Origin: Struthio camelus
Lineage: Eukaryota
Reading direction: 5' to 3'
Assembly: GCF_040807025.1 (NCBI RefSeq)
Contig: NC_090973.1
Coordinates: 935,107 to 981,852, forward strand
DNA: 46,746 nt
Under the pieces are notes generated by a model. That model worked only from the letters and a program-made list of their open reading frames with translations, was not told the origin of the DNA and made no database searches. A program made the translations under genes and the position numbers. Positions within the stretch are counted from its first letter, which is position 1. Every line of letters starts with the position of its first letter. Of the stretch, positions 5,898-40,900 are shown piece by piece.

Positions 5898-6093
5898 GGT
5901 GGCCTTCGCCCCCGTGCGCATGGTGACGGTGCCGGCGCGGCACTACTGCACGGTGCTGCACCCCGTGGCCCGGGCGCCCGGCGGGGAGGCCCTGCTGGAC
6001 GGCACCGGGCAGGTCCGGCTGCGGCACGGCGACCTGGAGGTGCGCCTGGCCCAGGAGCCCTTCCCTCTCTACCCCGGCGAGCAGCTCCAGCAG
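5898..6093 (+). CDS. MVP: MVP coding exon 2 (R)[65 protein letters not shown]
   Basis: Acceptor accccag|G at 5897/5898 completes the Arg codon split from exon 1. Strong identity to the human MVP exon (FAPMRMVTVPPRHYCTV...[25 protein letters not shown]). Donor cag|GTACCT at 6093/6094. Confidence 0.9.
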
Positions 6094-6099
6094 GTACCT

Positions 6100-9000
6100 A
6101 TGGCCCCTATAGACCCCCTATAGACCCTATAGCCCTCCCCGCGACCCCTCCGTCCCCGGTCCGGCTGGGGCTCGGCGACCTGGAGGTGCGCCTGGCCCAG
6201 GAGCCCTTCCCTCTCTACCCCGGCGAGCAGCTCCAGCAGGTACCTATGGCCCCTATACACCCCCTATAGCCCCTATAGACCCTATAGCCCTCCCCGCGAC
6301 CCCTCCGTCCCCGGTCCGGCTGCGGCACGGCGACCTGGAGGTGCGCCTGGCCCAGGAGCCCTTCCCTCTCTCCCCCGGCGAGCAGCTCCAGCAGGTACCT
6401 ATGGCCCCTATACACCCCCTATAGCCCCTATAGCCCTCCCCGCGACCCCTCCGTCCCCGGTCCGGCTGCGGCACGGCGACCTGGAGGTGCGCCTGGCCCA
6501 GGAGCCCTTCCCGCTCTACCCCGGCGAGCAGCTCCAGCAGGTACCTATGGCCCCTATACACCCCCTATAGACCCCCTATAGCCCCTATAGCCCTCCCCGC
6601 GACCCCTCCGTCCCCGGTCCGGCTGCGGCACGGCGACCTGGAGGTGCGCCTGGCCCAGGAGCCCTTCCCGCTCTACCCCGGCGAGCAGCTCCAGCAGGTA
6701 CCTATAGCCCCTATACACCCCCTATAGCCCCTATAGACCCTATAGCCCTCCCCGCGACCCCTCCGTCCCCGGTCCGGCTGCGGCACGGCGACCTGGAGGT
6801 GCGCCTGGCCCAGGAGCCCTTCCCTCTCTACCCCGGCGAGCAGCTCCAGCAGGTACCTACGGCCCCTATAGACCCCCTATAGCCCCTATAGCCCTCCCCG
6901 CGACCCCTCCGTCCCCGGTCCGGCTGCGGCTCGGCGACCTGGAGGTGCGCCTGGCCCAGGAGCCCTTCCCGCTCTACCCCGGCGAGCAGCTCCAGCAGGT
7001 ACCTATGGCCCCTATACACCCCCTATAGCCCCTATAGCCCCTATAGCCCTCCCCGCGACCCCTCCGTCCCCGGTCCGGCTGCGGCACGGCGACCTGGAGG
7101 TGCGCCTGGCCCAGGAGCCCTTCCCTCTCTCCCCCGGCGAGCAGCTCCAGCAGGTACCTATGGCCCCCATACACCCCCTATAGCCCCTATAGCCCCTATA
7201 GCCCCTATAGCCCTCCCCGCGACCCCTCCGTCCCCGGTCCAGCTGCGGCTCGGCGACCTGGAGGTGCGCCTGGCCCAGGAGCCCTTCCCTCTCTCCCCCG
7301 GCGAGCAGCTCCAGCAGGTACCTACGGCCCCTATACACCCCCTATAGCCCCTATAGCCCCTATAGCCCTCCCCGCGACCCCTCCGTCCCCGGTCCGGCTG
7401 CGGCTCGGCGACCTGGAGGTGCGCCTGGCCCAGGAGCCCTTCCCTCTCTACCCCGGCGAGCAGCTCCAGCAGGTACCTATGGCCCCTATACACCCCCTAT
7501 AGCCCCTATAGACCCTATAGCCCTCCCCGCGACCCCTCCGTCCCCGGTCCGGCTGCGGCTCGGCGACCTGGAGGTGCGCCTGGCCCAGGAGCCCTTCCCT
7601 CTCTACCCCGGCGAGCAGCTCCAGCAGGTACCTATGGCCCCTATAGACCCCCTATAGCCCCTATAGCCCCTATAGCCCTCCCCGCGACCCCTCCGTCCCC
7701 GGTCCGGCTGGGGCTCGGCGACCTGGAGGTGCGCCTGGCCCAGGAGCCCTTCCCTCTCTCCCCCGGCGAGCAGCTCCAGCAGGTACCTATGGCCCCTATA
7801 CACCCCCTATAGCCCCTATAGACCCCCTATAGTCCCTATAGCCCTCCCCGCGACCCCTCCGTCCCCGGTCCGGCTGCGGCTCGGCGACCTGGAGGTGCGC
7901 CTGGCCCAGGAGCCCTTCCCTCTCTACCCCGGTGAGCAGCTCCAGCAGGTACCTACGGCCCCTATACACCCCCTATAGCCCCTATAGCCCCTATAGCCCT
8001 CCCCGCGACCCCTCCGTCCCCGGTCCGGCTGGGGCTTGGCGACCTGGAGGTGCGCCTGGCCCAGGAGCCCTTCCCTCTCTACCCCGGCGAGCAGCTCCAG
8101 CAGGTACCTACGGCCCCTATACACCCCCTATAGCCCCTATAGCCCCTATAGACCCTATAGCCCTCCCCGCGACCCCTCCGTCCCCGGTCCGGCTGCGGCT
8201 CGGCGACCTGGAGGTGCGCCTGGCCCAGGAGCCCTTCCCTCTCTACCCCGGCGAGCAGCTCCAGCAGGTACCTATGGCCCCTATACACCCCCTATAGCCC
8301 CTATAGCCCCTATAGACCCTATAGCCCTCCCCGCGACCCCTCCGTCCCCGGTCCGGCTGCGGCACGGCGACCTGGAGGTGCGCCTGGCCCAGGAGCCCTT
8401 CCCTCTCTACCCCGGCGAGCAGCTCCAGCAGGTACCTATGGCCCCTATACACCCCCTATAGCCCCTATAGCCCCTATAGCCCTCCCCGCGACCCCTCCGT
8501 CCCCGGTCCGGCTGCGGCACGGCGACCTGGAGGTGCGCCTGGCCCAGGAGCCCTTCCCTCTCTCCCCCGGCGAGCAGCTCCAGCAGGTACCTACGGCCCC
8601 TATAGACCCCCTATAGCCCCTATAGCCCCTATAGCCCCTATAGCCCTCCCCGCGACCCCTCCGTCCCCGGTCCGGCTGCGGCACGGCGACCTGGAGGTGC
8701 GCCTGGCCCAGGAGCCCTTCCCTCTCTACCCCGGCGAGCAGCTCCAGCAGGTACCTATGGCCCCTATACACCCCCTATAGCCCCTATAGCCCCTATAGCC
8801 CCTATAGCCCTCCCCGCGACCCCTCCGTCCCCGGTCCGGCTGGGGCTTGGCGACCTGGAGGTGCGCCTGGCCCAGGAGCCCTTCCCTCTCTCCCCCGGCG
8901 AGCAGCTCCAGCAGGTACCTATGGCCCCTATACACCCCCTATAGCCCCTATACACCCCCTATAGCCCCTATAGCCCTCCCCGCGACCCCTCCGTCCCCGG

Positions 9001-10075
9001 TCCGGCTGGGGCTTGGCGACCTGGAGGTGTGCCTGGCCCAGGAGCCCTTCCCTCTCTCCCCCGGCGAGCAGCTCCAGCAGGTACCTACGGCCCCTATACA
9101 CCCCCGATAGCCCCTATAGACCCCCTATAGCCCCTATAGTCCCTATAGCCCTCCCCACGACCCCTCCGTCCCCGGTCCGGCTGCGGCTCGGCGACCTGGA
9201 GGTGCGCCTGGCCCAGGAGCCCTTCCCTCTCTCCCCCGGCGAGCAGCTCCAGCAGGTACCTATGGCCCCTATACACCCCCTATAGCCCCTATAGCCCTCC
9301 CCGTGACCCCTCCGTCCCCGGTCCGGCTGCGGCTTGGCGACCTGGAGGTGCGCCTGGCCCAGGAGCCCTTCCCTCTCTCCCCCGGCGAGCAGCTCCAGCA
9401 GGTACCTACGGCCCCTATAGACCCCCTATAGCCCCTATAGACCCCCTATAGCCCCCTATAGCCCCTATAGCCCTCCCCGCGACCCCTCCGTCCCCGGTCC
9501 GGCTGCGGCTCGGCGACCTGGAGGTGCGCCTGGCCCAGGAGCCCTTCCCTCTCTCCCCCGGCGAGCAGCTCCAGCAGGTACCTACGGCCCCTATAGACCC
9601 CCTATAGCCCCTATAGACCCCCTATAGCCCCTATAGCCCCTATAGCCCTCCCCGCGACCCCTCCGTCCCCGGTCCAGCTGCGGCACGGCGACCTGGAGGT
9701 GCGCCTGGCCCAGGAGCCCTTCCCTCTCTACCCCGGCGAGCAGCTCCAGCAGGTACCTATGGCCCCTATACACCCCCTATAGCCCCTATAGCCCTCCCCG
9801 CGACCCCTCCGTCCCCGGTCCGGCTGCGGCACGGCGACCTGGAGGTGCGCCTGGCCCAGGAGCCCTTCCCGCTCTACCCCGGCGAGCAGCTCCAGCAGGT
9901 ACCTACGGCCCCTATAGACCCCCTATAGACCTATAGACCCCCTATAGCCCTCCCCGCGACCCCTCCGTCCCCGGTCCGGCTGCGGCACGGCGACCTGGAG
10001 GTGCGCCTGGCCCAGGAGCCCTTCCCTCTCTCCCCCGGCGAGCAGCTCCAGCAGGTACCTACGGCCCCTATACAT
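6100..10075 (+). repeat. About 25 tandem copies (150-165 bp each) of the 3' 81 nt of MVP exon 2 plus the splice donor CAG|GTACCT plus (cccctatag)n
   Basis: ggcgacctggaggtgcgcctggcccaggagcccttccc...gagcagctccagcaggtacct recurs at about 6174, 6318, 6469, 6626, 6783, 6927, 7085, 7249, 7400, 7561, 7712, 7878, 8037, 8197, 8358, 8518, 8679, 8841, 9006, 9184, 9342, 9510, 9676, 9828 and 9982. Confidence 0.95.
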
Positions 10076-13020: not shown

Positions 13021-13115
13021 GCGAAGAGTGGCTGGTGAAGCGGGTGGGCGCCTACCTGCCCGGCGTCTACGAAGAGGTGCTCGACGTGGTGGACGCCTTC
13101 GTCCTCACTGAGAAG
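13021..13115 (+). CDS. MVP: MVP coding exon 5 (G)[31 protein letters not shown]
   Basis: Acceptor cccccaccag|GC. Matches human [31 protein letters not shown]. Donor gaag|GTACGG, phase 0. Confidence 0.9.
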
Positions 13116-13197
13116 GTACGGCCGGCACCCACGGGTGACGCCTCGCCGGGCCGGTGTCACCCGCCCGCCCGCCCTCACCCGTCCCTGTCACCCGCAG

Positions 13198-13434
13198 AAA
13201 GCCCTGCACCTTCGGGCCACGAGGACCTTCCGGGACGCCCAGGGCATGGTGCGGCGCACGGGCGAGGAGTGGCTGGTGACGCAGGCGCAGAGCGAGGCCT
13301 ACATCCCCGACGTCTTTGAGGAGGTGGTGGCCGAGGTGGCCGTCACCACCCTGGGGCCCCGGCAGTACTGCGTCGTCCTCGACCCCGTGGGGCCTGACGG
13401 CAAGCCCCAGCTGGGCCAGCAGCGCGTCGTCAAG
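13198..13434 (+). CDS. MVP: MVP coding exon 6 [79 protein letters not shown]
   Basis: Acceptor cacccgcag|AAA. The 79-codon exon is colinear with human [27 protein letters not shown]...[19 protein letters not shown]. Donor caag|GTGGGT. Confidence 0.9.
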
Positions 13435-13444
13435 GTGGGTGCCG

Positions 13445-14500
13445 CCCGCCCGAGGGTGGCCCTCCTGGGTCCACCCTGGGGGATGGACCACCGAGGAGGT
13501 GGCCGCGGGTGGCCTTGAGGGACCTCAATGGGCTCCTGAGGGGCTCAGGGTGACGCTGAGGCATGCTAAGGTGGCCCTGAGGGGGCTGAGGTGGCCTTCA
13601 AGGTTTTCAAGAGCCCTGAGGGGGGGTCAGGGTGGCCCTGAGGGACACTAAGGTGGCCCCAAGAGGTTCAGGGTGGCACCAGAGGCCCTCAATGGACCCC
13701 TAAGGTGGCCCTGAGGGGCTCAGGGTGGCACTGAGAGAAACTGAGGTGGCCCTGAGGGAGCTCAGATGGCCTTGAATGTCCTCAATCTCTAAGGTGCCCC
13801 TGAGGGGGTCGGGGTGGCCCCGAGAGATGCTAAGGGGGGGTCACAAGGGACCCCACCATGCCAGTGATGTGTTCCCATGGTGTCCCCATGTCCGCACCAA
13901 GCCATTGACATGTGCCTGTGGCATCCCCATGTCCCCGCCATGCTGGTGGCACGTCCCCATGGTGTCCCCATGTCCCCGTCAAGCCACTGATGTGTCCCCA
14001 CGGCATTCCCATGACTCCACCATGCTGGTGGCACGTCCACATGGTGTCCCCGTGTCCCCGTCAAGCCATTGACGTGTCCCCACGGCATTCTCATGACTCC
14101 ACCATGCTGGTGGCACATCCCTATAGTGTCCCCATGTCCCTGTCAAGCCACTGATGTGTCCCCACGGCATGTCCATGACTCCACCATGCTGGTGGCACGT
14201 CCCCATGGTGTCTCCATATCCCCCCCCAAGTCACTGATGTGTCCCCATGGCATTCCCATGACTCCACCATGCTGGTGGCACATCCCCATGGTGTCCCCGT
14301 GTCCCCGTCAAGCCACTGACGTGTCCCCACGGCATTCTCATGACTCCACCATGCTGGTGGCATGTCCCCATGGAGTCCCCATGTCCCTGTCAAGCCATTG
14401 ACATGTCCCCACGGCATCCCCATGACTCCACCATGCTGGTGGCACGTCTCCATGGAGTCCCCGCTGTGCCAGTGACGTGTCCCCACCGTGTCCCCTCGTC
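13445..14500 (+). repeat. MVP intron 6: 20-40-bp ggtggccctgagggggctca repeats (13445-13840), then about 4.5 copies of a 138-bp unit (13850-14500) derived from the exon-7 acceptor region
   Basis: The unit gtccccgtcaagccactgacgtgtccccacggcattc..accatgctggtggcacgtccccatggtgtcccc is mirrored at the true acceptor gccagtgacgtgtccccaccgtgtcccctcgtccccag|. Confidence 0.8.
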
Positions 14501-14505
14501 CCCAG

Positions 14506-14631
14506 GGCGAGAAGTCCTTCTTCCTGCAGCCGGGCGAGCGGCTCCAGGCGGGCATCCAGGACGTCTATGTGCTGGCTGAGGACGAGGGGCTGCTGCTGCA
14601 GGCGCTGCAGACCCTCACCCACCCCGACGAG
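14506..14631 (+). CDS. MVP: MVP coding exon 7 [42 protein letters not shown]
   Basis: Acceptor ctcgtccccag|GGC. Matches human [41 protein letters not shown]. The in-frame read-through hits a stop at about 14715, so a donor is required. gacgag|GTGCCC at 14631/14632 is the first in-phase GT. Confidence 0.8.
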
Positions 14632-14639
14632 GTGCCCGG

Positions 14640-15510
14640 GGGCAACTGGGGCTCCGGGGTGGGGGGGGGCAACTGGGAGCCCTGGGGGCGACTGGGACCT
14701 TGGGGAGGCAATTGAGACCTTTGGGGGCAACTGGGGTCTCTGGGGGGCAACTGGGACCCTGGGGGGGGCAACTGGGACCTTGTGGGGGTGCAACTGGGAC
14801 CCTAGGGAGGGCAACAGAGACCTTGGGGGCAATGGGGGCCCCTGGGGGACACAGGGGACCTGGGGGACCCAGGGGTGGCCGAGCCAGTTGGAACATCTGG
14901 TGGTGCGTGGGGGGCAATTATGTCCCCAACCCGAGGGGTGGCAGGGCCCTGTGTCCCCAAAAGGGGTGGCAGCCCTGTCCACATGTCCCCAAGGGGGTGG
15001 TAGGGAGGATCCTCATGTCCCCAAGGGGGTGGCAGCCCTGTCCACATGTCCCCAAGGGGGTGGTAGGGAGGATCCTCATGTCCCCAAGGGGGTGGCAGCC
15101 CCATCCCTGTGTCCCCAAGGGGGTGGCAGGAGGATCCTCATGTCCCCAAGGGGGTGGCAGCCCTGTCCACATGTCCCCAAGGGGGTGGTAGGGAGGATCC
15201 TCATGTCCCCAAGGGGGTGGCAGCCCTGTCCACATGTCCCCAAGGGGGTGGCAGGAGGATCCTCATGTCCCCAAGGGGGTGGCAGCCCCATCCCTGTGTC
15301 CCCAAGGGGGTGGCAGGAGGATCCTCATGTCCCCAAGGGGGTGGCAGCCCTGTCCACATGTCCCCAAGGGGGTGGCAGGAGGATCCCCATGTCCCCAAGG
15401 GGGTGGCAGCCCCATCCCTGTGTCCCCAGGGGGGTGGCAGGAGGATCCTCATGTCCCCAAGGGGGTGGCAGCCCCATCCCCATGTCCCCAAGGGGGTGGC
15501 AGGGACGGGT
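14640..15510 (+). repeat. MVP intron 7: ggggcaactgggacc 30-bp repeats, then about 62-bp gtccccaagggggtggcagccctgtccacat repeats
   Basis: Regular recurrence at 14966, 15033, 15093, 15159, 15219, 15283, 15403 and 15463. Confidence 0.85.
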
Positions 15511-32399: not shown

Positions 32400-35197
<2,798 letters not shown>

Positions 35198-35417
35198 GGC
35201 GGCCACGGGGAAGCAGACGAGCACCATGGCGGCGTGGTGGAGCACCATGAGCAGGTCCTTGCGGAGGTAGGCGGCGGTGGCGGCCCGCAGCGAGGGCGGT
35301 GGCCCGGCCTCGTGGCCCTTGACGCGACCCCGGTGCCAGTGGCAGAGGAACATGGCGTAGACGTCGTAGATGAAGTAGGGCACCGCGAACTCCGGGTAGG
35401 CGCCCGCCAGCCAGTGC
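35198..35417 (-). CDS. TLCD3B: TLCD3B coding exon 3 (Q)HWLAGAYPEFAVPYFIYDVYAMFLCHWHRGRVKGHEAGPPPSLRAATAAYLRKDLLMVLHHAAMVLVCFPVAA
   Basis: Minus-strand acceptor ccggcgcag|G. Matches human HWLSSAYTQFAVPYFIYDIYAMFLCHWHKHQVKGH...YLHKEFLMVLHHAAMVLVCFPLSVV, including the TLC-domain HH motif. Donor gccgcc|GTGAGTGAGG, phase 0. Confidence 0.85.
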
Positions 35418-35419
35418 CT

Positions 35420-37010
35420 GCGCCGGGAGAGGGACCCAGGTGTCCGGGGAGGGACCCAGGTGTCCGGGGAGGGACCCAGGCGTCCGGGAGGGACCCAGGC
35501 ATCCGGGAAGGACCCAGGAGTCCGGGCAGGGACCCAGGTGTCCGGGCAGGACTGAGGCATCCGCATCCACTACCCTGGTTTTACTCAACCCATTGGAGCT
35601 CTCCAAAGGGGCCCAGGCATCCGGGCGCTGCCCCTTGCCCCCCACCCCCACCCCAAGGGGCCCAGATGTCCGGGCGCTGCCCCTTCCCCCCCACCCCCAC
35701 CCCAAGGGGCCCAGGCGTCCAGGCGCGCCGGGCTAATCCCCCACCCCCACCCCGCCCGCCAAGGGCAAAGCCTAGAGAGAGGGCCCAGGCGTCCGGCTCT
35801 CCCCTCCCCCAGCCCCAAGGGACCCAGGCGTCCGGGCGCTGCCCTCCTCCGCCCCCCCCCCCCCCGCTTCGCTCGGAAGGGCCCAGGCGTCCAGGCGCTG
35901 CCCTCCTCCCTCCCCCCCCAACCTCGGGCTCAGAAGGGCCCAGGCGTCCGGGCGCGCCAGGCTAATCCCCATCTGCTCAGTGGCTAATCCCCGCCAAGGG
36001 CAGAGCCGAGAGGGCCCAGGCGTCCGGGCGCTGCCTCTCCCCCCCCCAACCTCGGGCTCAGAAGGGCCCAGGCATCCGGGTGCTGCCCCTCCCCCACCCT
36101 GCTCAGAAAAGGGCCCAGGCGTCCGGGCGCTGTCCAGTGCTGAAGGGCGGCCGGCGCCGGGAAGGGAGGGGACGGGGACCCTGTGGGTGCCCTTGGGGGT
36201 CCCCAGGGGCCATGTGGGTGCTGTGGGGTGGGTGTAGGGGCACCGTGGGGCAGGGTGGCACCCACGGGTCACGGTGGCACCCACAGTTTGGGGTAGCACC
36301 TATGGGTCATGGTGGCACCCACGAGTTGTGGTGACCCCCATGGGCCACGGTGGCACCCATGGGCCATGGTGACACCCACAGTTTGGGGTGACCCCCATGG
36401 GTCACGGTGGCACCCATGAGTCATGGTGGCACCTATGGGTCATGGTGGCACCCACGAGTTGTGGTGACCCCCATGGACCACGGTGGCACCCATGGGCCAT
36501 GGTGACACCCACAGTTTGGGGTGACCCCCATGGGTCACGGTGGCACCCATGAGTCATGGTGGCACCTATGGGTCATGGTGGCACCCACGAGTTGTGGTGA
36601 TCCCCATGGGTCACGGTGGCGCCCATGGGCCATGGTGGCACCTATGGGTCATGGTGGCACCCACGAGTTGTGGTGATCCCCATGGGTCACGGTGGCACCC
36701 ATGGGCCATGGCGATACCCACAGTTTGGGGTGGCACCTATGGGTCACGGTGGCACCCATGGGCCATGGTGGCACCCACAGTTCGAGGTGACATCCATGCG
36801 TCATGGTGGCACCCATGGCTTGTGGTGGCATCCATGGGCCACGGTGGCACCCGTTGGTCATGATGCCACCCACGGGGCATGGTGGCACCCACAGGCTATG
36901 GTGACACCCACGGGTTGTGGTGGCACCTATGAGTCACAGTGGCACCTATGGGCCATGGTGACACCCACGGGTCGTGGTGGCACCCATGGGTCATGATGGC
37001 ACCCACGGGT
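35420..37010. repeat. TLCD3B intron 2: gggacccaggtgtccgggga / gggcccaggcgtccgggcgctgcc repeats (35420-36130), then a 19-20-bp ggtggcacccatgggtcac minisatellite (36180-37010)
   Basis: Direct tandem recurrence. These share the GGCCCAGGCGTCCGGG core with the arrays at 32400-33425 and 44900-46746. Confidence 0.85.
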
Positions 37011-37129: not shown

Positions 37130-39350
37130 GGACACGGGGACGTCAAGGGACATCGAGGGACGGGGACGTTGGGGACATGAGGGGACGGGGCCCTGAGCGG
37201 GTGGCAGCCACCCCTGCGGCCACCCCCCGCTGCCACTTGTCCCCAGCCCTGTCCCCAAGCTGCTGCCATCCCTGTCCCCACGGTCCTCGCGGTGTCCCCG
37301 TCCCCACGTTGTCTCCACAATGTCCCCGGCTGTCTCCATGTTGTCCCCATGCCATCCCTGTCCCTGTCCCCTCGCTGTCCCCATTCCCCCGTGTCCCCAT
37401 CCCTGTCACTGTCCCCTCATTGTCCTTGTTCCCTCATTGTCCCCGTCCCCACAGTGTCCCCAGCCCTGTCCCCGTCCCCTCATTGTCCCCACACCGTCCC
37501 CCTCCCCAGTGTCCCCATCCCGGTCGCTGTCCCGTCACCGTCCCCACGACGTCCCCGTCCCCATAGTGTCCCCAACCCCTCATTGTCCCCATCCCCATCC
37601 CCTCATTGTCCTCTCGTTGTCTCCGTCCCCACGGTGCCCCTGTCCCTGTCCCCTTGTTGTCCCCACGCTGTCCCCGTCCCCTTGTTGTTTCTGTCCCCTC
37701 CTTGTCCCCTTGTTGTCCCCATGCCGTGTGTGTCCCTGTCCCCGTCCCCTCAGTGTCCCCTTGTTGTCCCCGTCCCCTCACTGTCCCCCCAGTGTCCTCT
37801 CCTTGTCCCCATCCCCTCCCCATCCCACTGTTGTCCCTGTCCCCTCAGTGTCCCTGCCCTCAGTGTCCCCCCACCCCCTCAGTGTCCCCTGTGTCCCCTC
37901 CCCATCTCCTCAGTGTCCCCACACCGTCCCCGTCTCCTCAGTGTCCCCTCAGTGTCCCCACCCTCTCCCCCTGCCCTCATTGTCCCCCCTGTCCCCTCAG
38001 TGTCCCCACACTGTCCCCATCCCCTCAGTCTCCCCTCACTGTCCCCATCCCCTCCCCGCCCTCCCCGTCCCCTCAGTGTCCCCTCAATGTCCTCACATTG
38101 TCCCCATCACCCTGTTGCCCCCTCAGTGTCCCCTCAGTGTCCGCCCGTGTCCCCATCCCTCCACCCCCCCGTTGTCCCCTCAGTGTCCCCACACTGTCCT
38201 CATCTCCCATCCCCTCCCCGTCCCCCCAGTGTCCCCATCCCTTCCCCCATCCCCACCCCGTCCCCTCAGGGTCCCCACACCGTCCCTGTCCCCTCAGTGT
38301 CCTCTCAGTGTCCCCATCCCCCTGTTGTCCCCTCAGCGTCCCCCCCATGCCCTCAGTGTCCCCACACTGTCCCCGTCCCCCCTCCCCTCCCCGCAGTGTC
38401 CCCTCAGTGTCCCCCTCCCCCGTCCCATCAGTGTCCCCTCAGTGTCCCCTCAGTGTCCCCTCAGTGTCCCCATCCCCTCCCCCATCCCCACACTGTTCCC
38501 ATCCCCCCCCAGTGTCCCCACACTGTCCCCGTCCCCTCAGTGTCCCAATCGCCCCCTCAGTGTCCCAATCGCCCCGTTGTCCCCTCAGTGTCCCCATCCC
38601 CCCTCAGTGTCCCCTCAGTGTCCCCATCCCCTCCCCCATCCCCACACTGTCCCCATCCCCCCCCAGTGTCCCCACACTGTCCTCGTCCCCTCAGTGACCC
38701 AATCGCCCCGTTGTCCCCTCAGTGTCCCCCTCCCCCGTCCCCTCAGTGTCCCCTCAGTGTCCCCTCAGTCCCCCCATCCCCTCCCCCGTCCCCTCAGTCC
38801 CCCCCTCCCCCCGTTGTCCCCTCAGTGTCCCCATCCCCTCCCCCCTCCCCTCAGTGTCCCCTCAGTGTCCCCATCCCCTCCCCCCCTCAGTGTCCCCTCA
38901 GTGTCCCCCTCCCCCCTCCCCTCAGTGTCCCCTCAGTGTCCCCCATCCCCTCCCCCCTCCCCTCAGTGTCCCCTCAGTGTCCCCATCCCCTCCCCCGTCC
39001 CCTCAGTGTCCCCCCATCCCCTCAGTGTCCCCCTCCCCCATCCCCTCAGTGTCCCCTCAGTGTCCCCATCCCCTCCCCCCCTCAGTGTCCCCTCAGTGTC
39101 CCCATCCCCTCCCCCGTCCCCTCAGTGTCCCCTCAGTGTCCCCCTCCCCCTCCCCCCATCCCCTCAGTGTCCCCTCAGTGTCCCCCTCCCCCTCCCCCCA
39201 TCCCCTCAGTGTCCCCTCAGTGTCCCCCTCCCCCCTCCCCTCAGTGTCCCCTCAGTGTCCCCTCAGTGTCCCCCTCCCCCATCCCCTCAGTGTCCCCCTC
39301 CCCCCCTCCCCTCAGTGCCCCCCCGTCCCCTCCTCGCCCCCCCCCCACCC
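37130..39350. repeat. C-rich 24-30-bp minisatellite (tgtccccatcccctcagtgtcccctcag family), about 2.2 kb, filling TLCD3B intron 1
   Basis: Continuous recurrence of cctcagtgtcccc. The plus strand is Pro/Ser-codon-like, which explains the long artefactual ORFs here. Confidence 0.85.
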
Positions 39351-39356
39351 CGGTAC

Positions 39357-39493
39357 CGGGCGGCGACGATGACGGCGTCGGGCTCGGGCCAGCGCAGCCC
39401 CGGCAGCCGCCGCAGCCCGGCCCGGGCCGCCAGGAAGAGCCCGGGGAAGAAGACGAAGCCGCCGGCCAGCAGGGCACCCGGGGGGGCCGCCAT
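39357..39493 (-). CDS. TLCD3B: TLC domain-containing protein 3B (FAM57B), coding exon 1: MAAPPGALLAGGFVFFPGLFLAARAGLRRLPGLRWPEPDAVIVAA(R)
   Basis: Minus-strand ATG (plus CAT at 39491-39493). Matches the human TLCD3B N-terminus M..VAGGVVFPGLFLLSKNTLQRLPQLRWEEADAVIVSAR. Donor cccg|GTACCG on the minus strand, phase 2. Confidence 0.8.
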
Positions 39494-39499
39494 GAGCGG

Positions 39500-40900
39500 G
39501 GGGGGGCGGGGGGCGGGGGGGGGCACAGGGACCTGCCCGGCCCGGCCCGGCCCGCCGGCCCCGCCGGGAGCGACGCTGGGGGCGGGGCCTGAGGGGGGCG
39601 GGGCAACAGAGGGGGCGGGGTCTGAGGGGGGCACAGGGACCTGCCCGGCCCGCCGGCCCCGCCGGGAGCGACGCTGGGGGCGGGGCCTGAGGGGGGCGGG
39701 GCTTGAGGGGGCGGGGTCTGAGGGGGGGCACAGGGACCTGCCCGGCCCGGCCCGGCCCGCCGGCCCCGCCGGGAGCGACGCTGGGGGCGGGGCCTGAGGG
39801 GGGCGGGGCTTGAGGGGGCGGGGTCTGAGGGGGGCACAGGGACCTGCCCGGCCCGGCCCGGCCCGCCGGCCCCGCCGGGAGCGACGCTGGGGGCGGGGCC
39901 TGAGGGGGGCGGGGTCTGAGGGGGCGGGGTCTGAGGAGGGGCACAGGGACCTGCCCGGCCCGCCGGCCCCGCCGGGAGCGATGGTGGGGGCGGGGCCTGA
40001 GGGGGGCGGGGCCTGAGGGGGGCGGGGTCTGAGGGGGGTGGGGTCTGAGGGGGGCACAGGGACCTGCCCGGCTCGGCCCGGCCCGCCGGCCCCGCCGGGA
40101 GCGACGCTGGGGGCGGGGCCTGAGGGGGGCGGGGTCTGAAGGGGGCGGGGTCTGAGGGGGGGCACAGGGACCTGCCCGGCCCGCCGGCCCCGCCGGGAGC
40201 GACGCTGGGGGCGGGGCCTGAGGGGGGCGGGGTCTGAGGGGGCGGGGTCTGAGGGGGGCACAGGGACCTGCCCGGCCCGCCGGCCCCGCCGGGAGCGACG
40301 CTGGGGGCGGGGCCTGAGGGGGGCGGGGCCTGAGGGGGCGGGGCCTGAGGGGGGGGGCACAGGGACCTGCCCGGCCCGCCGGCCCCGCCGGGAGCGATGG
40401 TGGGGGCGGGGCCTGAGGGGGGTGGGGCCTGAGGGGGGGGCACAGGGACCTGCCCGGCCCGCCGACCCCGCCGGGAGCGATGCTGGGGGCGGGGCCTGAG
40501 GGGGGCGGGGCCTGAGGGGGGGCACAGGGACCTGCCCGGCCCGGCCCGGCCCGCCGGGAGCGACGCTGGGGGCGGGGCCTGAGGGGGGCGGGGTCTGAAG
40601 GGGGCGGGGTCTGAAGGGGGGCACAGGGACCTGCCCGGCCCGGCTCCGCCCTGCCGGAAGCAATGCTGGGGGGGGTCTGAATGGGGGCGGGGCCTGAGGG
40701 GGGCGGAGTCACAGGGGGATGCAGGGACCTGCCTGGCCCTGCCGGGAGTGATGCTGGCGGCGGGGCCATGGGGCGGGGTCACAGGGGGTGGGGCCTAAGG
40801 GGGCGGGGGGCTACCTGGCCCGGCCCGGCCCTGCCTTGGGGGTGACCCTGGGGGCGGGGCCTAAAGGGGGCGGGGCCTAAAGGGGGCGGGGCGTGAGGGC
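39500..40900. repeat. About 105-bp tandem repeat, about 13 copies, rich in GC-boxes (GGGGCGGGGCCTGAGGGG), immediately upstream of the TLCD3B ATG (5' UTR or proximal promoter)
   Basis: cacagggacctgcccgg recurs at 39525, 39633, 39730, 39837, 39944, 40055, 40164, 40260, 40360, 40443, 40524, 40623 and 40716. Confidence 0.9.

Follow-up and report, generated by a model that had tools for sequence, protein, structure and literature searches.

The window, a stretch of 46,746 nucleotides of Struthio camelus DNA, contained a complete MVP (major vault protein) gene on the + strand, in which tblastn with a human MVP probe identified 16 coding exons from 1133 to approximately 29354. The human MVP sequence served as a probe only. 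A protein search with the peptide encoded by exons 3-8 revealed that the top matches were bird MVPs, with identities of 86% (Nothoprocta), 84% (Ibidorhyncha), 84% (Atlantisia) and 79% (Chroicocephalus); MVP of Chlamydotis was 87% identical, over half of the query only. The MVP exons in the window were intact and showed 84-92% identity to those of other birds, and the gene had a G+C content of 68%. The features around exons 6 and 7, together with a second array at exon 2, are listed in Table 1. The exon numbering of the initial annotation, in which exon 7 starts at 14506, agreed with these boundaries, and so did its reading of the acceptor of this exon as ..GCCAGTGACGTGTCCCCACCGTGTCCCCTCGTCCCCAG/GGC, with the AG at 14504-14505 (a slash marks the splice point here and below).

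Table 1. Positions of the features described in the text, numbered from the first letter of the window.
Feature	Position	Strand	Description and basis
Exon 2 donor array	6012-10074; copies 6158-6239 ... 9973-10054		blastn-short
MVP coding exon 6	13198..13434	+	79 codons, ends QQRVVK; tblastn with MVP; exon present in five bird loci
Intron 6 GT donor	13435-13436	+	read from sequence
Intron 6	13435..14505	+	1071 nt; 5' half G-rich, 3' half C-rich
Second, looser array of intron 6 (5' half)	13535..13835	+	periods 20 and 93, motif GGTGGCCCTGAGGG; TRF
E1, first (edge) 41-mer	13851..13891	+	CCCCACCATGCCAGTGATGTGTTCCCATGGTGTCCCCATGT; A/B intermediate look; most acceptor-like copy
Internal array	13892..14458	+	seven 82-bp dimers, A half CCCCGTCAAGCCACTGACGTGTCCCCACGGCATTCCCATGA and B half CTCCACCATGCTGGTGGCACGTCCCCATGGTGTCCCCATGT
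E2, terminal 41-mer plus AG; working acceptor region of exon 7	14459..14505	+	CCCCGCTGTGCCAGTGACGTGTCCCCACCGTGTCCCCTCGTCCCCAG
GTGAC, putative branch point	14472..14476	+	A at 14475, 31 nt before exon 7
Polypyrimidine tract upstream of the AG	14477..14503	+	20 nt before the AG are 80% pyrimidine
Authentic acceptor AG	14504..14505	+	sole CAG/G in the array region
MVP coding exon 7	14506..14631	+	42 codons, ends THPDE; outside the repeat

TRF arrays made up 82% of intron 6. The looser array in the 5' half of the intron had no kinship with the array at the acceptor. We observed that its motif, GGTGGCCCTGAGGG, recurs in a degenerate, non-tandem form throughout the neoavian orthologous introns (Ibidorhyncha, Atlantisia, Chroicocephalus and Chlamydotis), and the 20/93-bp array at 13535-13835 therefore also looks locally derived from old intron sequence. 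A search of 13100-14700 against Rfam revealed nothing near significance, with a best E-value of 0.52.

As the initial annotation had proposed, a tandem array filled 13851-14505, the final 655 nt of intron 6, and its units read ..GTCAAGCCACTGACGTGTCCCCACGGCATTC..CCATGCTGGTGGCACGTCCCCATGGTGTCCCC. The proposed period of 138 bp was incorrect; the self-match of the array at a lag of 138 was only 0.155, which was lower than the off-period background of 0.27. TRF revealed a period of 82 bp with 7.2 copies and 87% matches, together with a 247-bp higher order, and a repeat search of the window resolved the array into 16 monomers with a spacing of 41 nt, which alternated between two forms, A and B. The A and B monomers were identical at 26 of 41 positions. 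The self-match was highest at a lag of 82 (0.74), followed by 247 (0.65) and 41 (0.57), and the 247-bp higher order, which corresponds to three dimers, was weak. The last B half of the internal array was 8 nt short; the terminal 41-mer, E2, came after this B unit across the 8-nt deletion and ended with the acceptor AG. The 41-bp sub-unit had a G+C content of 63.4%. Additionally, the array showed a strong strand asymmetry: runs of C4 or longer numbered 28, and G4 runs were absent. The canonical G-quadruplex or i-motif pattern (four C3+ runs with loops of up to 12) was absent from the array because the fourth run is 18 nt away.

The copies differed in their similarity to each other along the array. 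The central dimers were 87-93% alike, and the similarity of the first and last dimers to the others was 78-87%. Slightly higher similarity was seen between dimers that are three apart (93, 93 and 85%) than between neighboring dimers (approximately 88%), which fits the 247-bp period. Transitions accounted for 37 of the 47 differences from the consensus, and 13 of them were CpG transitions at the four CpG sites per unit. This pattern is that of a methylated, neutrally decaying array, the center of which has been partly homogenized.

We compared the splicing signals of the array units with those of the authentic acceptor. The GTGAC in E2 is the probable branch point, as judged from the yUnAy consensus and the list of AG dinucleotides; no AG was present between 14475 and the acceptor AG, and each of the four neoavian introns had a TRAY element (TGAC, TAAC or TGAT) at the corresponding position. 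The A units carried CTGAC, TTGAC or CTGAT, followed by a tract with 65-80% pyrimidine, and the most pyrimidine-rich tract (0.80) was that of the real acceptor. Each 82-mer had a single AG, in the context GTCAAG/CC, which has an A at -3 and a C at +1 and forms a weak cAAG/C site. Copies of exon 7 were sought with blastn-short under the exon-copy criteria of Hron et al. (length of at least 20 nt and bit score of at least 42.1; PMC12954441), and none were found elsewhere in the window. Given that exon 7 had no copies and that the units contained cAAG/C in place of CAG/G, the 3' splice site itself was not duplicated. The amplified segment is purely intronic and comprises the putative branch point and the pyrimidine tract, within the approximately 41 bases directly upstream of exon 7.

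AGs upstream of the acceptor were present at 13982, 14064, 14146, 14229, 14311, 14393 and 14471. Splicing to any of the upstream AGs would lead to a frameshift or an early stop. Since the units provide only the poor cAAG/C, splicing should still use the lone CAG/G at 14504-14505, and the array most likely has no function. Every unit mimics part of a 3' splice site, and gene predictors and splice-site models would thus meet many near-signals in such introns.

The relationship between E2 and the array units was examined with a specific word and with profile searches. The acceptor 19-mer GCCAGTGACGTGTCCCCAC matched the A units at 18 of 19 positions. When up to three mismatches were allowed, this word had seven matches in the 46.7-kb window, all of which were inside the array (shuffles expect 0.04). 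A profile HMM was built from the 13 internal 41-mers, the internal array was masked, and both strands of the window were searched. E1, with an E-value of 4.3e-11, and E2, with an E-value of 1.6e-4, were the two top matches; the next best match anywhere had an E-value of 0.024, and E2 was therefore superior to all other sites in the window, apart from E1, by approximately 150-fold in E-value. The alignment of E2 to the profile was in register and extended over 29 nt, from 14467 to 14495 (profile positions 9-37). E1 and E2 were identical at 36 of 47 positions without gaps, and the positions that agreed with either the A or the B consensus numbered 36 of 41 in E2 and 39 of 41 in E1. Upon comparison with the introns of the gene, the acceptor probe scored 41 in its own intron and a maximum of 33 in all other introns. 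The alignment of the acceptor flank with the unit, which had been set beforehand as the test of the proposed kinship, reached beyond the TGACGTGTCCCCAC block, moderately and by a margin that was not wide. On these alignments, the terminal 41-mer E2 is a true relative of the array units.

Two other scores were tried and dropped. With a plain local score (+2/-3), the alignment of the acceptor flank to the 82-bp consensus ended at the 19-nt block, and 47 of 18,398 tiles elsewhere equaled or exceeded the acceptor flank. This score was too unspecific owing to a common motif, GTGTCCCC, and was replaced by the specific-word and profile searches; other introns also contain the tail motif GTGTCCCC..GTCCCC (25846, 33635 and 37441-37646). 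The profile of the 82-bp dimer ranked E2 poorly (E-value of 0.16). The 41-mer profile is the right model because E2 joins an A-like head to a B-like tail.

To place the array in a comparative context, we compared five bird MVP loci, i.e., those of the tinamou Nothoprocta and the four Neoaves Ibidorhyncha, Atlantisia, Chroicocephalus and Chlamydotis. The four neoavian orthologous introns were 640-765 nt in length and had a G+C content of 55-57%. TRF revealed no array in these four introns, with at most 2.5 copies of short motifs; three of the assemblies may be short-read and could have collapsed arrays, and the array-less intron of Chroicocephalus sits on a 3.2-Mb contig. All four introns ended with ..CTGCTGGTGA(C/T)(G/A)TGTCCC..GTCCCCAG, for which the shorter form is ..CTGCTGGTGACGTGTCCC..GTCCCCAG. 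A profile built from the four 43-nt neoavian flanks was searched against the whole window, and its ten best matches were all within 13859-14494 on the + strand. The best match was a B unit with an E-value of 0.0065, and E2 had an E-value of 0.019; the cross-species matches were individually weak (E-values of 0.007-0.2), and the array copies are non-independent, so that the ten top matches represent one event seen many times. In the MAFFT alignment, the neoavian flank was placed on a B unit and was followed by a gap of approximately 290 columns up to the AG. The neoavian GCTGGTG was kept by the B units, and GTGACGTGTCCC was kept by the A and E units. The acceptor flank of the tinamou had its best match in the window at E2 (14451-14471, score 45). 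When plain local alignment was used, equal or better matches to three of five outgroup probes were found at other places in the window, owing to the frequency of the GTGTCCCC motif. Single outgroup probes were set aside, as those of Ibidorhyncha and Chlamydotis were weak or non-specific and the four-species profile was clearer.

E2 sits where the acceptor flank sits in the other birds. We consider it quite probable, short of proof, that E2 is, by its position, orthologous to the ancestral acceptor flank and that the array units are paralogues of E2. The initial annotation had derived the array from the acceptor region of exon 7. The local origin in this proposal is supported by the position of E2, the neoavian profile and the array-less introns of Neoaves, but exon 7 and the 3' splice site were not part of what was copied.

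Some features of the outgroup loci were observed in addition. Intron 6 of the tinamou Nothoprocta (locus 6351-7355) contained its own G-rich arrays, GGACATGGGGACAC.., with periods of 20, 48 and 68 around a 525-N gap, and a 19-bp repeat with 2.6 copies, GTCCCCGTGTCCCCACCGT, was located directly at the acceptor. The G-rich unit of the tinamou held the reverse complement of the acceptor motif GTGTCCCCATGTCC. In Chlamydotis, the sequence at approximately 6363-6560 continued past an acceptor-like site of intron 6 straight into sequence resembling late MVP exons, AVESAGAARAEA.., and neither exon 7 nor exon 8 was detected in this locus; the cause is either a deletion or a misassembly in the Chlamydotis genome.

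Across the rest of the locus, TRF arrays covered 76% of the window and 77% of the MVP gene, and they covered 0% of each exon except exon 2. Every intron longer than 400 nt consisted of 34-97% tandem repeat, and arrays were located 0-60 nt from many splice sites. The tandem-repeat share of MVP was 6-16% in the four Neoaves and 70% in the tinamou, in which the units were others. We compared the 45 nt beside each splice site with its own intron and with all other introns of MVP (1251-29255) and found that 15 of the 26 splice-site flanks had own-intron matches above anything in the other introns. The clearest of these were the intron 2 donor (score 80), the intron 8 acceptor (63) and the intron 13 donor (52), and further clear matches were found for the intron 11 donor and the intron 15 acceptor (48 each). 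Arrays that are seeded from, or reach into, splice-site flanks are the rule in the MVP gene; with 15 of 26 flanks having own-intron paralogues, the acceptor of intron 6 is therefore typical and not exceptional.

Genes on chicken dot chromosomes have been reported to undergo sequence stuttering, in which introns are full of imperfect local tandem blocks and exons remain intact (Hron et al. 2026, Genome Biol Evol, PMC12954441). Exon edges and splice sites are occasionally copied as well, which was termed exon stuttering (PMC12954441). In that study, a local origin of the blocks and an expansion independent between species were inferred, and the length varied between individuals (PMC12954441). 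The mechanism was left open between replication stress at GC-rich or G4 DNA and meiotic gene conversion (PMC12954441). The screen of Hron et al. detects only arrays that contain exon sequence, and intron-only arrays are invisible to it (PMC12954441).

The array at exon 2 consisted of 25 further copies of the last 82 nt of the exon, the GT donor and approximately 73 nt of the intron, with a period of approximately 155 bp and 97.6-98.8% identity. It is textbook exon stuttering, in which the real donor is followed by 25 intact decoys. Compared with these nearly identical copies, the array of intron 6 looks older, as we infer from the divergence of its units. According to the initial annotation, the start codon, a donor and an acceptor region of the gene had each been amplified. 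We found this for the donor, with its 25 copies, and for the intronic part of the acceptor region, but not for the start codon, as the best match to its context covered 15 of 18 positions and scored 21, which fell short of the 99.5th percentile of chance matches in the window (23). In particular, the array upstream of the gene (1-1056; periods of 20, 101, 122, 141 and 242) contained GCCCCATGGTGGGTCCCG, which matched the start-codon context GCCCCATGGAGGACCCCG (1118-1165) at these 15 positions only.

The array of intron 6 shares with sequence stuttering its imperfect blocks of tens to hundreds of bases in an intron of a very GC-rich bird gene. The blocks fill the intron (82-bp unit, 7.2 copies; 82% of intron 6) and are locally confined, as the unit profile had no match with an E-value below 0.02 outside intron 6 and the exons other than exon 2 were free of repeats. 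Additionally, the orthologous introns differed, with no array in Neoaves and different arrays in the tinamou. On the features compared, namely block structure, local confinement and ortholog differences, the array of intron 6 would be classified as one instance of intronic sequence stuttering. In contrast to the arrays of Hron et al., it is intron-only, and its source was traced by outgroups to the segment with the branch point and pyrimidine tract. As in exon stuttering, the source lies where exon and intron meet, and the array extends as far as the exon. However, the copies contain neither exon 7 bases nor the CAG, and the copied exon sequence that defines exon stuttering was thus found in the exon 2 array (25 matches) and not in intron 6. 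The array also resembles higher-order satellites or minisatellites under unequal exchange in its 41/82/247 hierarchy and in its central copies, which are more alike than those at the edges. Unlike higher-order satellites, the array is tiny (0.65 kb) and intragenic, and its terminal unit doubles as a functional acceptor flank.

We take PPP4C, ALDOA, KCTD13 and SEZ6L2 to be neighbors of MVP on human 16p11.2. The chicken orthologues of these four genes are listed on dot chromosome 38 (supplement, PMC12954441). MVP was absent from the text and the searchable supplements of Hron et al. (PMC12954441).

Taken together, the array probably originated by local tandem amplification of approximately 41 nt directly upstream of the 3' splice site of exon 7. 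First, a flank present once and similar to the neoavian ..CTGCTGGTGACGTGTCCC..GTCCCCAG would have been duplicated, and the copies would have diverged into the A and B forms. The 82-bp AB dimer would then have been amplified approximately sevenfold, possibly with a later duplication of 247 bp (three dimers). The outermost monomers, with the least exchange between copies, would have stayed closest to the original, and the last monomer would still serve as the real acceptor. The copying itself may have proceeded by replication slippage, by unequal sister-chromatid or meiotic exchange or by gene conversion, in the setting of a very GC-rich, repeat-dense avian chromosome region. The absence from the array of a G-quadruplex motif, which is one proposed driver of stuttering, counts against this explanation.

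The direction of derivation could be the reverse, with an older array, which birds may have had ancestrally and Neoaves may have lost, having spread to the splice site and gene conversion from this array having overwritten the acceptor flank; the acceptor copy would then be the recipient of the sequence. We consider this unlikely. Over their last ~150 nt, the neoavian introns are rich in pyrimidines and contain loose GTCC/CATGTCC motifs that line up with several units in the MAFFT alignment; the tinamou has its own repeat (19 bp x 2.6) at the acceptor, and the B units fit the neoavian flank slightly better than E2 does, all of which would suit a reversed direction. However, no array of more than 2.5 copies was found by TRF in any of the four neoavian introns, E2 was the window's best match to the tinamou flank and occupies the orthologous position with the conserved TRAY element, and both edge copies are A/B intermediates, as expected of remnants of the source. 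Compositional convergence, in which acceptor flanks and C-rich arrays both favor GTCCCC-type pyrimidine motifs without common descent, is very improbable given that the 19-mer was found nowhere else in the window, that the match kept the 41-nt phase over 29 nt, and that E2 and the acceptor probe stood apart from all other window sites and introns in E-value and score, respectively; the recurrence of GTGTCCCC..GTCCCC in other introns and the 47 equally high-scoring tiles are what convergence would predict.

It is likewise highly unlikely that the repeated modules of branch point and pyrimidine tract constitute a functional splicing element, serving as decoys or as a landing pad for C-rich/pyrimidine-binding splicing factors that tune the inclusion of exon 7. 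The array is absent from four other birds with the same exon, its copies decay by CpG transitions like neutral DNA, and nearly every long MVP intron holds an unrelated array, whereas such an element would account for the good branch-point matches and pyrimidine tracts of the A units. The missing CAG fits selection against cryptic acceptors but is also explained if the AG was never in the copied unit. The size and composition of the sub-unit resemble those of PO41, a 41-bp repeat with 63% G+C (PMC3091757) that is enriched in the euchromatic part of chicken dot chromosomes (PMC9974502), and a dispersed avian 41-bp satellite (PO41 or CNM) could have landed in the intron. Such an insertion appears extremely improbable, as the PO41/CNM family has a 21-bp core with (A)3-5 and (T)3-5 clusters (PMC7374410), whereas neither the A nor the B consensus has an A or T run longer than 2, a distinction drawn from the family description and not from a consensus sequence. 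In addition, no copy matching the unit profile was present outside intron 6 in a window of which 76% is tandem repeat.

As a probable product of local amplification, an intron-only array with a traced source supports the idea of local origin, which Hron et al. inferred mainly from exon-containing arrays. It provides a cleanly dissected case of a phenomenon whose description dates only from 2026 and is otherwise an ordinary, probably neutral, part of a highly repetitive gene. A generalization in which stuttering arrays are seeded preferentially from splice-site-proximal elements (the branch point and pyrimidine tract, or the donor flank) is doubtful, with the 15 of 26 MVP flanks pointing in its direction. 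If it were true, the introns of dot-chromosome genes would largely be their own amplified splicing signals, and selection would hold the working copy at the exon edge. Decoy branch points or donors would then be numerous in each such intron, and the instability would be linked to splicing or co-transcriptional processes.

Two further regions of the window, downstream of MVP, contained open reading frames. On the plus strand, a C-rich array at 37292-39797 was spanned by very long ORFs of 766-825 aa with proline/serine/cysteine-rich repeats (..PSVSPQCPHP..); these ORFs may represent a low-complexity coding exon or simply a stop-free array. On the minus strand, the ORF at 35039-35566 matched the TLC domain PF03798 with 24.5 bits, slightly below the cutoff of 24.6 (E-value of 3e-5), and is probably an exon of a neighboring gene on the opposite strand. 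Arrays with a 155-bp period at approximately 34.1-35.2 kb surrounded this TLC-domain ORF.
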